NCBI GenBank assembly: GCA_027067235.1
Contig: JALXFQ010000067.1
Span: 1-27,548 of the forward strand
DNA length: 27,548 nucleotides
DNA from: Gammaproteobacteria bacterium
GTDB lineage: Bacteria > Pseudomonadota > Gammaproteobacteria > QOAV01
Reading direction: 5' to 3'
Position 1 is the stretch's first letter, and the number at the start of each line of letters is the position of its first letter. Below the pieces are notes generated by a model. The model saw only the letters and a program-made list of their open reading frames with translations, had not been told where the DNA came from and did no database searches. Position numbers and translations under genes: made by a program. Below, piece by piece: positions 16,296 to 27,548 of the stretch.

Positions 16296-16420
16296 ACCAA
16301 TCGTAACCGATTGGTTTTACTCTGAAAATAGAGCAGAGAAAATTCTACCGATTTTTTCCGCTAAAAATCCGGCGATCTTTTCTGCTCCAAACAGTACTTT
16401 CGAATTGTAAAAGAGCGTGG
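16296..16420 (-). promoter_or_regulatory. CRISPR leader
   Basis: AT-rich gap between cas2 and the first repeat; contains AAAATCGGTAGAATTTT, resembling the GGTAGA motif of I-E leaders, about 50 nt from the repeat. Confidence 0.85.
16304..16316 (-). promoter_or_regulatory. IHF-like site in the leader
   Basis: AACCAATCGGTTA has one mismatch to WATCAANNNNTTR, at -9 to -21 from the first repeat, where IHF binds in E. coli I-E leaders. Confidence 0.6.
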
Positions 16421-16726
16421 TCATTGAGCGGATTCGTCGTCTATCTCGGGGAGAAATGAAACAAGGCGCAGGCCTTCATAGTCGATAGGGATACGCCGGT
16501 TCTCGCCCAGGGTCTGGAAGTCGAACCCGGATTCGGTGTTTGTCGCCCAGGCCATAACGATATTGCCCTCCTCCACGAAGAATTCGCATTGTTCCCAGAT
16601 CATTTCCCGTACGCGTTTTGAGGTATTCCCGACATACACGCCAGCGCGTACTTGTAAGAGCCATACCGCCAGCCGCCCCCGCAACCTGGGAGGCACATTT
16701 TCTGTTACGACGACTAGCATGGTCAT
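16421..16726 (-). CDS. cas2: Type I-E Cas2
   Basis: [31 protein letters not shown]...[14 protein letters not shown]; follows cas1. Confidence 0.96.
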
Positions 16727-16728
16727 GG

Positions 16729-17646
16729 CTATCCGCTCCGGTGTCCGGCGTCGCCGATGTTTTCGGGTTCGGGAATGGCGGGAGGGACGGATTCTTCCGG
16801 CGCTTTCGGCGGACTGATGCCGCCCGCATCCAGTACTTCCTCAATCAGCGGGATGATTTTTTTCAGCGTTTTTTGCGCGCGAAACGTATCGCGGCAAAGT
16901 AGCCGCACTTCTCTGTCCGGGTTTCGGGGGTTTTGCGCGGCCACTTTGAATGCAGCCGGAATAACGCCGTCAAATTTGAATATATCGGCAATATCGTATA
17001 CGAAAGACAGCGGTTTGCCCGTATGAATAAATCCAACGGCGGGTGCATAACCCGCTGCGAGGACGGCTGCTTCCGTAATGCCGTATAAACAGGCGGTGGC
17101 GGCGCTGACGCAACGATTGGCGATATCTCCGGCTTCCCAGTCCTTCGGATCGTAACGCCGCCCTTTCCATTTGACGCCATAACGCTTGGCCAGTAATTGA
17201 TAGGTTGCTCGCACCCGTGCGCCTTCGATGCCCCGAAGTTGTTCCACGCTTCTTTTCTTGGGCGGTTCTTCGCCAAAGCGTAACTCGTACATCTTGCGCA
17301 CGACTTTGAGGCGCAACGTGTCGTCCAGCGCCAGTTTTGCCTGATAGAGCAGGCGATCAGAGCGGGCGCCGCCAGGTTGACCTGACGCATAAAGACGCAC
17401 ACCTGCCTCTCCGACCCAGACCAGCAATGTGCCAACAAGAGCCGCAAGCTTCACCGCCGCATGGGAAACGCGCGTTCCCGGCTCCAGCATAATGCAGGCA
17501 ACGGAGCCAACGGGTACGTGCTTGCGCTCGCCGTTTTTGTCGATCAGCACGAAAGCGCCATCCTTTACGTCCACCTGACCATACTGGAGGTAGATCATGG
17601 ATACCCGGTCTTTCATGGGGATGGGCTTAAGAGGCAGAAAGGGCAC
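16729..17646 (-). CDS. cas1: Type I-E Cas1
   Basis: [51 protein letters not shown]; very E. coli YgbT-like. GTG start with no clear SD. Confidence 0.98.
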
Positions 17647-17661
17647 GGGAAGACAACGCCG

Positions 17662-17943
17662 TCACGCTGCCCGATGAATGTGCATATCGACACGGAAACC
17701 CGCCTGCGACAGCATGTTGACCAGCCGATCCACGGTACATTTGTCGATACGCCCCTTGATGACGTCATTAAGCCGGGGTTGCGTCGTACCCAGACGTTGC
17801 GCCGCTTCAGTCTGGGTCAAACCGGAGTGTTCCACATACTCGGCGATCTTCATCATCAACGCGGAGCGCAGTTTCAGGTTTTCCGCCAGAACGACATCGT
17901 CTTCCAACGCATCCCATACGCTTTCATATTGCTTGTCAGTCAT
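17662..17943 (-). CDS. higA: XRE/HigA-like HTH antitoxin
   Basis: 93 aa; SVWDALED...ENLKLRSALM...LTQTEAAQRLGTTQPRLNDVIKGRI helix-turn-helix; ATGA overlap with the upstream toxin. Confidence 0.8.
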   Translation of the reverse strand: MTDKQYESVWDALEDDVVLAENLKLRSALMMKIAEYVEHSGLTQTEAAQRLGTTQPRLNDVIKGRIDKCTVDRLVNMLSQAGFRVDMHIHRAA

Positions 17944-18266
17944 TTTTCCAACCTCTGCGTTAATTGCCTCAACCGCCGCCGCGCCAGCTCGATATCCGGT
18001 TTTGATGTCTTTTGCGTTTTCTTTTGAAACGCATGGAGAACATGAACCTTGTCGCCAAATTTCGCGACATAAATCACGCGATACTGCATGCCCACCTGTA
18101 TTCCTATCTCGCTTACGCCAGCACCAATCGCAGAGAATGGCTTCCAGTTGAGCGGCTCCAACCCACGCTGAATACGATCAATCTCGTAACCTGCTCTCTG
18201 CCGGGCGTTATCTGGAAACGCGCGAATAACCGCCAGAGAATCTCCTTCAAAAGAAACTGATTTCAT
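17940..18266 (-). CDS. higB: RelE/HigB (Gp49-like) type II toxin
   Basis: 108 aa; F.GDSL..IR.FP..AR..AGY, YRVIYVAKF, VLHAFQKKTQKT...DIELAR; toxin-before-antitoxin order. Confidence 0.82.
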   Translation of the reverse strand: MKSVSFEGDSLAVIRAFPDNARQRAGYEIDRIQRGLEPLNWKPFSAIGAGVSEIGIQVGMQYRVIYVAKFGDKVHVLHAFQKKTQKTSKPDIELARRRLRQLTQRLEK

Positions 18267-25866: not shown

Positions 25867-25913
25867 TTAACCTGTGGAATCAGCTAATAGTAACAGAATC
25901 TTCCACCGCCAAT

Positions 25914-26510
25914 TCACGACTTGTACACAACATAACCCGGAAGTTGTGATTCGTCCCGCGCGCAGACGTCGAACGGGCCTTCGGAGAGCCAGCGTCGGCG
26001 GGTGTTTTCGCTGAGGAGGCGCGGGCGGGCGGCTTTTTCGGTGCTGTATTTGCCCAGATAGTCTTCCGCGTCCGGTTGCTGGTTTTCGGCGTCCGCCCAC
26101 TGCGGCAGGCCTTGCAGGGGGATAAGGATGGCGAAGCGCATCCGCTCCCACGGGTTGGCGGCGTCGATGCGGCGGGTGAGTCGGGCTTCGAGGGGGACGC
26201 CGGCGTCCATGAGCTGGGCGACGGCGGCGTTGTCGCGCATGGGAACGTAGCCGAGTTTGTGTTGTTTCCACCAGATTTCCACGGCGCGGCGGTCGTGGGG
26301 GTTGGTTTTGTCTCGCTTGAGGGTCAGCGGCGCGCCGGGCGGGATGTTTTTCCAGACGGTTTCGCCGTCGTAGTATTGAAACCCGGCGATGGCGGAGACT
26401 TGCAGCAGGGCGATGCGATGATCACCCCCGGTCTTTGCGCTGGCCTTGTTTGTGGTGATGCCAACCGCGCTTACGGCGGCAATTTGCTTGAGGAAATGAC
26501 GACGTTTCAT
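25914..26510 (-). CDS. HIRAN-domain protein with twin-arginine-like N-terminus
   Basis: IAGFQYY...LTLKRDKTNPHDRRAV...KLGYVP..DNAAVAQLMD HIRAN signature; MKRRHFLK...ASA N-terminus; GGGAG RBS. Confidence 0.85.
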   Translation of the reverse strand: MKRRHFLKQIAAVSAVGITTNKASAKTGGDHRIALLQVSAIAGFQYYDGETVWKNIPPGAPLTLKRDKTNPHDRRAVEIWWKQHKLGYVPMRDNAAVAQLMDAGVPLEARLTRRIDAANPWERMRFAILIPLQGLPQWADAENQQPDAEDYLGKYSTEKAARPRLLSENTRRRWLSEGPFDVCARDESQLPGYVVYKS

Positions 26511-26564
26511 GTTGGCGGCTCCCTGTCGTTGGTTTTCTAAGAACCAACACGATAGCGAAGCCGC

Positions 26565-26581
26565 GTATCATTCCCTGATAC
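26565..26581. promoter_or_regulatory. Inverted repeat, candidate WYL-regulator operator
   Basis: GTATCA-N5-TGATAC in the WYL-HIRAN gap, 10 bp upstream of a possible -10 box TATCGT (26554-26549). Confidence 0.4.
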
Positions 26582-26591
26582 TGCCAGATGA

Positions 26592-27548
26592 TTATTGGTA
26601 ATTTTTTTGCATCTGGCCCAGTTCGCGGCGAAGCGCCTCGCGCAGAACCGGCGGCGCCAGCACTTCCACATCCGCGCCGTATTTGAGGATGTCGCCAATC
26701 AGTTCCTCATGGCGGCGGTAGGGCAGGCGCAGTTCGTAGCCGCCGTCGTCCAGCCAGCGGCCGGTCTGCTCGGGATGCCAGGATTCGTTGGCCACCCAGC
26801 GGGCGCGGTGGGGGTTGAAACGCAGCACGGCGGTCTTGTCCGGCTCGCCGGCGAATATGCCGTAGGCGGTGGCGTAGTGGCGGTCGAGTTGTTCGTCGTC
26901 CATATCCAGCGCGGCCTCATCCAGCGCCTCGGCGGTTTCGATGCAATCCAGCGAGAACGTGCGCAGGGCCTCGCGCTGGTGGCACCAGGCGTCCAGATAC
27001 CAGTTGTCGCGGTAATGGGTCAGGCGCTGCGGTGAAAGCTCGCGCTGACTGGGTTGATCGGCGCTGCGGGCGTGGTAGGTGATGCGCAGGCGCTGGCGCT
27101 GCAGGACGGCGTGGGCGATACGCGGGAACCAGCGCGACTGTTCGCGCCGTCGCCCCATGGTCAGCAGCCGGATGCGGTTGAAATGCTGCCCGGCTCCGCC
27201 AATACGCTCCATCAGCTTGCGCAGCCGCCGCCGGAATGGCCGGGTTTCGGCGCGCACCAGCCCCGGCTCCAGATTGGACAACAGGCTGTCGGCCACCAGC
27301 AGGGCGTGGATTTCTTCCGGGTTGAGCCAGAGGCCGGGGACTTCCCGTTCGCCCGCGGCGCGGTCGATCACATAACCGTTATGCTCGCGGTCGTATTCCA
27401 CCGGCACGGAGAACGTATCACGCAGCGCGGCGATGGCGCGCTTGACGGTAACGCCCTTGCATTCCAGTTTTTGCTCAAGCTGTTGACGCGACACCGGATA
27501 CCGTCGGTTGGCCAACTCGCGATACAGAGTCATCACACGATCAAACTT
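26592..27548 (-). CDS. wHTH-WYL-WCX transcriptional regulator (5' end runs off the window)
   Basis: Frame is open to the edge (KFDRVMTLYR...); HTH VSRQQL..KLE...TVKRAI..LRD; WYL core SPQRLTHYRDNWYLDAWCH..EALRTFSLD; WCX tail ILKYGADVEVLAP. Confidence 0.92.
   Translation of the reverse strand, partial: KFDRVMTLYRELANRRYPVSRQQLEQKLECKGVTVKRAIAALRDTFSVPVEYDREHNGYVIDRAAGEREVPGLWLNPEEIHALLVADSLLSNLEPGLVRAETRPFRRRLRKLMERIGGAGQHFNRIRLLTMGRRREQSRWFPRIAHAVLQRQRLRITYHARSADQPSQRELSPQRLTHYRDNWYLDAWCHQREALRTFSLDCIETAEALDEAALDMDDEQLDRHYATAYGIFAGEPDKTAVLRFNPHRARWVANESWHPEQTGRWLDDGGYELRLPYRRHEELIGDILKYGADVEVLAPPVLREALRRELGQMQKNYQ

Follow-up and report, generated by a model that had tools for sequence, protein, structure and literature searches.

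A type I-E CRISPR-Cas locus of a gammaproteobacterium in which three candidate control elements appear to be nested

We have studied a type I-E CRISPR-Cas locus in a gammaproteobacterial assembly of 2.39 Mb (GCA_027067235.1). The locus lies in contig JALXFQ010000067.1 (C67 in our numbering), which was analysed as a whole and is called the window below (27,548 nt). It has three candidate control elements: a palindromic box between the gene of a WYL transcription factor and the genes HIRAN and cas3, an antisense mini-array of CRISPR repeats over the promoter of the Cascade gene cse1, and an operator-like palindrome of a toxin-antitoxin (TA) pair before cas1-cas2. All three had been noted in a sequence-only reading, which took them as separate switches for nuclease, Cascade and adaptation. 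The elements are indeed there, and all of them exceed chance: the WYL box is conserved in held-out loci, the mini-array with its target has a shuffle rate of 0–1.4% and the TA palindrome is kept in free-standing TA pairs. Their separateness is not supported. The best explanation overall is probably an ordinary chromosomal I-E operon which has collected three modules that act in a nested way. There are two well-supported tiers, probably of opposite signs, plus a cargo slot, and the three elements look like separately acquired add-ons rather than one designed system of three switches.

The left part of the window is filled by housekeeping genes (hflX, miaA, mutL, amidase, tsaE, recR and dnaX), which places the locus in the chromosome. 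The order of the minus-strand genes is WYL, HIRAN, cas3, cse1-cse2-cas7-cas5e-cas6e, Gp49 toxin, HTH_37 antitoxin, cas1e, cas2e, leader and array; the coordinates are given in Table 1. The closest relatives by Cse1 are metagenome-assembled genomes of uncultured Gammaproteobacteria. Related loci are designated below by L numbers.

The first tier is found in the 81-nt gap between WYL and HIRAN, which contains the WYL box. A matrix of this box was made from 11 regions upstream of HIRAN and tested on 39 other, held-out WYL loci. A score of at least 8.5 is reached within 170 nt past the WYL stop in 18 of the 39, as compared with only 2 upstream control regions, and sites better than their own shuffles (p<=0.05) are found in 21. 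One of the 18 is L178 (genome G040); when it is dropped the count becomes 17/38 and the conclusions are the same. The site in the window has the best score of its motif in the whole genome, yet it was part of the training set. Of the 18 held-out matches, 12 have a hexamer xAxxxT exactly 10 nt downstream of the box. Promoters with a box have no recognisable -35, and their -10 lies at a fixed distance of 10–11 nt. In the I-E relatives L014, L029, L030, L034, L047, L053, L075, L079 and L083 the box is found about 55–80 nt ahead of cas3 and HIRAN does not intervene; in L014, L053 and L079 there is no adjacent WYL gene either, WYL being encoded elsewhere in each genome. The WYL family is common, with members in 101 of 401 genomes taken class-wide. 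In this fragmented assembly we found no WYL regulon at the scale of the genome: a box with a -10 at 10–11 nt occurs at 3 sites, against 1–3 at shorter spacings.

The WYL protein itself is closest to activators. Its profile matches DriD over the full length (3–314), while BrxR and CapW match over the WYL part only. The AlphaFold model (predicted local distance difference test score, pLDDT, 84) has DriD as its top fold match and PafBC as the next one; CapW and BrxR rank lower. Helices 77–124 of the model form a bundle between the helix-turn-helix (HTH) and WYL domains, so that the protein has the architecture of DriD/PafBC/DdaA-type activators: winged HTH, three-helix bundle, WYL and WCX. The conserved residues Tyr158, Trp183 and Tyr184 are present. 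The site also has the features of this type of activator, a palindrome over the -35 at a fixed distance from the -10: the sites of DriD span the -35 and keep a constant spacing to a weak -10 (PMC12340889). DriD of Caulobacter and PafBC of mycobacteria are activated by single-stranded DNA (ssDNA); they differ from our protein by an identity of only about 21%, by controlling DNA-damage genes instead of cas genes and by the Arg pair of WYL beta4/beta5, which is replaced in the window. A closer precedent in function is DdaA, which activates the I-F cas genes of Acinetobacter after DNA damage through the motif CGWCA-N5-TGWCG (PMC12392091); outside Moraxellaceae its relatives putatively regulate neighbouring genes (PMC12392091, PMC13010146). 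Both are gammaproteobacterial wHTH-WYL-WCX regulators with a CA-N5-TG core in cas promoters. The box in the window has outer bases TA/GC instead of CG and does not fit the DdaA motif; it straddles the -35, whereas that of DdaA lies about 50 bp upstream of where transcription starts; and the target here is HIRAN-cas3 of a I-E system, with no genome-wide DNA-damage regulon found. Our WYL protein would thus work like DdaA but is not classed as DdaA, the two being compared by motif, position and regulon rather than by protein sequence.

The fold, the DriD-like geometry of the site and the DdaA precedent together lead us to regard the box as a promoter element linked to WYL, which more likely serves an activator than a repressor; the protein probably turns HIRAN-cas3 on, and the best reading is that of a local activator which would respond to ssDNA. 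We have also considered that it might be a repressor of the BrxR/CapW type, which would block the -35 region until ssDNA releases it. WYL proteins associated with defence are often repressors (PMC13010146), and a palindrome over the -35 would also block RNA polymerase. This alternative appears very improbable to us, given the likeness to DriD/PafBC and the activator geometry described above. BrxR and CapW typically bind near their own promoter, and in C219, L155 and L116 the region upstream of WYL has no box. The first of these, contig C219, matches exactly the last 90 nt of the window, then diverges to 88%, and gives the probable region upstream of WYL.

Several observations were made around this tier. 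Positions 1433–1969 of C219 (genome G000) hold either a second WYL copy or the allele of a sister strain, with the 90 nt identical; it diverges most around the recognition helix of the HTH (KGV to AEA), which could alter DNA specificity. L079 has two boxes (4153 and 7186), of which one stands ahead of HIRAN and the other directly ahead of cas3; a TA pair separates them. In L010 (170–550) WYL and its box are retained, and HIRAN has shrunk to a stump of 32 codons ahead of cas3. WYL-HIRAN also stands directly before a distant cas1, about 22–29% identical to that of the window and probably of type I-F, in L090, L099, L103, L109 and L110. A repeat GTTGGTT/AACCAAC before the ribosome binding site (RBS) of HIRAN was rejected as an operator: it is absent in L116 and L092, whose WYL is 82–83% identical and where only the GTATCA box persists. 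More likely it belongs to an RNA hairpin. In 26511–26564 (minus strand) RNA read through from WYL is predicted to fold into a long hairpin over this RBS, while a transcript from the box promoter would lack the 5' arm of the hairpin. Among 19 loci such a hairpin is below the shuffle mean in 14 and reaches p<=0.1 in only 4, which is not significant.

The HIRAN protein has an odd start for a domain which binds DNA ends (26430–26510): RR-x-FL, a hydrophobic stretch and A-x-A. When 16 homologues are compared the N-terminal Arg is invariant, the twin-arginine-like pattern is kept in most, and the 65-aa tail is found in P0002 only. In the literature searched we found no link of WYL with HIRAN at CRISPR loci. 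A predicted extended -10 close to the start of cas3 suggests basal expression of this gene, so that WYL may not be its sole control.

The second tier lies in the 247-nt gap between cas3 and cse1, where the sequence-only reading had placed a self-targeting mini-crRNA (CRISPR RNA) before Cascade. The mini-array on the plus strand and its target are both found there. The predicted cse1 promoter scores higher than any other sigma70 match of this region; inside it lie the target (23026–23039), placed between the -35 and the -10, and a protospacer adjacent motif (PAM) AAA in positions 23023–23025. Spacer and target match in 13 of 14 nt. The mismatch is at position 6, the base which is flipped out by Cascade. 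No other site in the genome has the 11-nt seed with a PAM. Repeat, spacer and target are found together in 21 of 72 scoreable relatives, with a shuffle rate of 1.4%; counts of mini-arrays are lower bounds; a revised detection added cases such as L039, L050, L075, L028 and L030. Spacer and target co-vary among relatives. Of the 19 mini-arrays scored for it, 17 have the PAM AAG and 2, those of the window and of L037, have AAA. Within the first 12 positions, mismatches are confined to position 6 (15 loci) and position 12 (12 loci). The cse1 promoter keeps its geometry with a different sequence in L004, L005, L010 and L014. Hairpins equivalent to the likely terminator at 23146–23177 follow the second repeat in L004, L005, L010, L014, L016 and L024.

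These features strongly support a typical crlRNA/CreR, which is a published mechanism. Such mini-arrays occur in about 19–20% of bacterial I-E loci; a I-E CreR represses PcasA about 8.6-fold, and the circuit has been tested in Salmonella I-E (Shmakov et al. 2023, bioRxiv 10.1101/2023.03.03.530964; Liu et al. 2023, bioRxiv 10.1101/2023.03.10.532045). As in those cases, the mini-array of the window is antisense between cas3 and cas8e, its first repeat keeps the 5' handle and the second one the hairpin, and a seed of about 14 nt with a mismatch at position 6 matches the cas8e promoter. It differs by its PAM, by the 20-nt spacer and by a target exactly between -35 and -10. With a 20-nt spacer, Cascade would lack two Cas7 and interfere weakly (PMC5159557), and such a reduced Cascade would suit repression without cutting.

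Spacers of mini-arrays fall into two length classes, which differ by two Cas7 steps: 19–21 nt (the window at 23101–23120, L004, L005, L010, L016 and L081) and 32–33 nt. In positions 23095–23114 (plus strand) the end of the 5' handle is predicted to pair with the spacer, which could compete with Cascade loading. In L039 and L050 the cas3-cse1 gap has mini-arrays with an AAG-flanked target on the strand opposite to the usual one. A 13-bp inverted repeat around the target was discarded as an element: it is not conserved in L004 and L005 and probably corresponds to two back-to-back -10 boxes.

A quite different explanation is a single long transcript driven by WYL from HIRAN to cas2, in which the mini-array is weakened by its PAM and the TA pair is inert, so that only one switch matters. 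The cas strand lacks terminators at most junctions, the PAM is indeed non-canonical, and in L034, the complete genome of Methylotuvimicrobium sp. KM1, the box precedes cas3, which overlaps cse1 with no mini-array, so that WYL can head the whole operon there. On the other hand the cse1 promoter, with the best sigma70 match, is conserved around targets which co-vary, the seed is perfect except at position 6, the handle, hairpins and terminator are intact, and L037 also has an AAA PAM, in its case with a match of 21 nt. We judge this explanation to be as improbable as a WYL repressor.

The third element is the palindrome in the gap between cas6 and the toxin gene, where a TA operator before cas1-cas2 had been proposed. 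At full match it is unique in the genome. It is nearly identical before the same TA pair in L011, a CRISPR locus, and similar in L130 and L146, which have no cas gene nearby. Its recurrence in TA copies away from cas indicates that it is the operator of the pair itself. The pair has the features of the Gp49/HigBA2 type: Gp49 toxin first, XRE-HTH antitoxin second, overlapping genes and an upstream palindrome. In this it resembles HigBA2 of Acinetobacter, whose antitoxin represses its own promoter (PMC5906591), but the promoter of the pair in the window looks degenerate. The promoter score is at least 8 in 13 of 15 free-standing copies, 7 in the window and 6 in L011, and in these last two the hexamer at the usual -10 position of the family lacks its final T. 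A weak promoter in the copies embedded in CRISPR loci suggests that they are expressed by read-through, as judged from two related cases.

TA pairs of many families, mostly co-oriented, have been known in type I cas loci since 2013–14 (Zhang, Doak, Ye 2014, PMC3936711). The site between cas6 and cas1 is empty in 20 of the 55 relatives which have both genes, and has an insert in 35. We have found in it at least nine unrelated types of pairs. The inserts include RHH-PIN, Phd-ParE, MNT-HEPN, another HigBA, DUF433-DUF5615, MazE-PIN, UPF0175-DUF3368, BrnA, DUF2442 and Bro-N or KilA-N genes. TA pairs also occur at other cas sites: between cse2 and cas7, between cas3 and cse1 (HicAB) and upstream of cas3. 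The nearest relatives L006 (11992–12608), L007 and L009 have an inverted AbrB/MazE-Fic/Doc pair between cse2 and cas7. Because the palindrome belongs to the pair, its own -10/-35 are degenerate and the site is swapped or empty in relatives, the TA pair appears weak as a dedicated switch of adaptation, and the site looks like a cargo slot. As only 15 nt separate the pair from cas1 and no terminator intervenes, it is expected to be transcribed together with cas1-cas2, and some modulation is possible. In the literature searched no paper was found which shows TA control of cas1-cas2.

Of the original proposal that each module has its own control element, the mini-array and the WYL box remain well supported, and the TA part is weak. 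U-tract terminators on the cas strand were looked for at the junctions WYL-HIRAN, HIRAN-cas3, cas6-TA and TA-cas1, and none was found. The controls are thus expected to be nested and not separate, with cas1-cas2 also under the Cascade promoter that the mini-array controls. A search of the relatives for the same architecture found all three features in L014, L075 and probably L030, that is 2–3 of the 45 which can be scored for all of them; 0.9–1.3 are expected if the features are independent. The TA families in these loci differ from that of the window, and the triple is never found with the TA family of the window among relatives. Mini-arrays occur independently of the box and of TA (p=1). The loci with all three features lie in different clades of the Cse1 tree (a quick version, in which lower-case labels mix absent with unknown), and the close neighbours of the window vary in mini-array and TA content: L007 (86% in Cse1) lacks a mini-array and carries another TA, and L005 (88%) has an unrelated HigBA. 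This pattern points to repeated assembly from mobile parts, not to one inherited design. The combination, which the sequence-only reading did not recognise from elsewhere, is absent from the papers that our literature search found; it does recur in relatives, and each of its parts has a published precedent.

A few observations weigh against nested modules of which only two are controls. The AAA PAM may weaken control by the mini-array. In the WYL protein the FRLDR-type motif reads FSLDC, so that both arginines implicated in ssDNA handling are altered; the same reading is common to the WYL proteins of L155, L116 and L162. The box and TA are found together more often than expected (7/9 against 8/36, raw p=0.003), in part through Methylobacter kin, which make up four of the seven. 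At cas6-cas1 every TA pair has the orientation of cas, which fits purifying selection and real use of a promoter for cas1 alike. Finally, there is a second candidate promoter, TTGATA-17-TAAGAT, which begins within the toxin gene and might serve antitoxin-cas1-cas2.

The association of box and TA is the main point left in favour of three separate switches under joint selection, in which cas1-cas2 would be gated by the antitoxin and not depend on Cascade. Such switches would also agree with the intact, co-oriented TA palindrome, with the antitoxin ending so close to cas1 without a terminator, with the self-repression of HigA2 in Acinetobacter (PMC5906591) and with the fact that the layout recurs in distinct Cse1 clades, where the TA families are different. 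We still find them unlikely: no terminator follows cas6e, the embedded TA promoters are weak, 20 of the 55 slots are empty, the nearest relatives (L005, L006, L007 and L009) differ in mini-array and TA, and the triple is close to its expected frequency.

Under the nested arrangement which we prefer, a WYL dimer similar to DriD or DdaA would bind the palindrome that replaces the -35 ahead of HIRAN-cas3 and most likely activate this promoter when ssDNA appears, through damage or phage replication; cas3 may in addition be served by its own weak promoter. Between the -35 and the -10 of cse1, Cascade carrying the short antisense crRNA-like RNA would sit without cutting. Cascade would then be held at a set level, which would rise when real crRNAs or anti-CRISPRs draw it off. 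The transcript from the cse1 promoter probably continues through the TA pair into cas1-cas2, and Cascade bound to the promoter may block read-through from cas3. The TA pair would be exchangeable cargo with a role in addiction or abortive infection; its antitoxin probably binds its own palindrome and would modulate cas1-cas2 at most as a side effect. In this scheme the identities of the genes, their conservation, the co-variation and the geometry are observed, while activation, the ssDNA signal, the repression by Cascade, the read-through and the function of the TA pair are inferred. A more ambitious version can be imagined, with a fixed, self-limited Cascade, Cas3 armed only when WYL senses ssDNA, promoter-bound Cascade stopping the WYL-driven transcript and an antitoxin which ties spacer acquisition to stress. 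It would be a module-specific control of opposite signs, assembled repeatedly with different TA pairs, and we regard it as doubtful.

In the rest of the locus, the leader (16296–16420) has many inverted repeats, including a palindrome with 8-bp arms which abuts the first repeat of the array. One spacer of the array was searched and gave no exact viral match. DNA contigs from related strains cover TA and HIRAN only thinly, which we do not count as evidence.

Table 1. Features of the type I-E locus in the window
Feature	Position	Strand	Remarks
WYL transcription factor (wHTH, three-helix bundle, WYL, WCX)	26592–27548	-	Pfam HTH_11/WYL/WCX; start cut by contig end, two codons missing as judged from C219
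WYL box GTATCA-N5-TGATAC, straddles -35 position	26565–26581	-	Kept behind WYL homologues, before HIRAN or cas3
Predicted -10 TATCGT	26549–26554	-	10 nt past WYL box
HIRAN-domain protein	25914–26510	-	PF08797; twin-arginine-like N-terminus, 65-aa tail
Possible WYL-independent extended -10 (TG-n-TACTAT) for cas3	25887–25895	-	Prediction; similar in L116, L010
cas3 (HD nuclease + helicase)	23158–25854	-	Alternative in-frame ATG at 25866
Hairpin + T-rich tail, likely terminator of mini-array transcript	23146–23177	+	z = -4.05
R2, degenerate second repeat	23121–23149	+	Hairpin kept, handle lost
Regulatory spacer, 20 nt	23101–23120	+	12 nt shorter than array spacers
R1, first mini-array repeat	23072–23100	+	Intact 8-nt 5' handle; 3 mismatches to array repeat
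Predicted cse1 promoter	23018–23047	-	-35 TTGATA 23042–23047, 18 nt, -10 TATCAT 23018–23023; 10/12 match
cse1, cse2, cas7, cas5e, cas6e (Cascade genes)	18313–22904	-	
TA operator-like palindrome	18286–18303		8-bp arms, 2-nt spacer; in 46-nt cas6-toxin gap
Gp49/DUF891 (RelE/HigB2-type) toxin	17940–18266	-	PF05973, E 8e-23
HTH_37 (XRE, HigA2-type) antitoxin	17662–17943	-	PF13744, E 3e-22; ends 15 nt before cas1
cas1e + cas2e	16421–17646	-	TIGR03638, TIGR01873
Leader and 84-repeat type I-E array	11201–16420	-	Leader 16296–16420, array 11201–16295

Mini-arrays and TA pairs are common and have been published; the locus is of interest for the link of WYL with cas3 and for the way in which this link combines with the mini-array, and not as a system of a new kind. 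Outside E. coli, little is known of the timing and the means by which native type I-E systems turn on Cas3. Should the WYL box be the site of an ssDNA-responsive activator, it would be a defined and widespread trigger, of cas3 in I-E and of cas1 in I-F systems, in many Gammaproteobacteria, and it would extend the DdaA result beyond Moraxellaceae. Together with the crRNA-guided autorepression of Cascade, such an activation would allow constant surveillance, with the destructive enzyme made only on demand.

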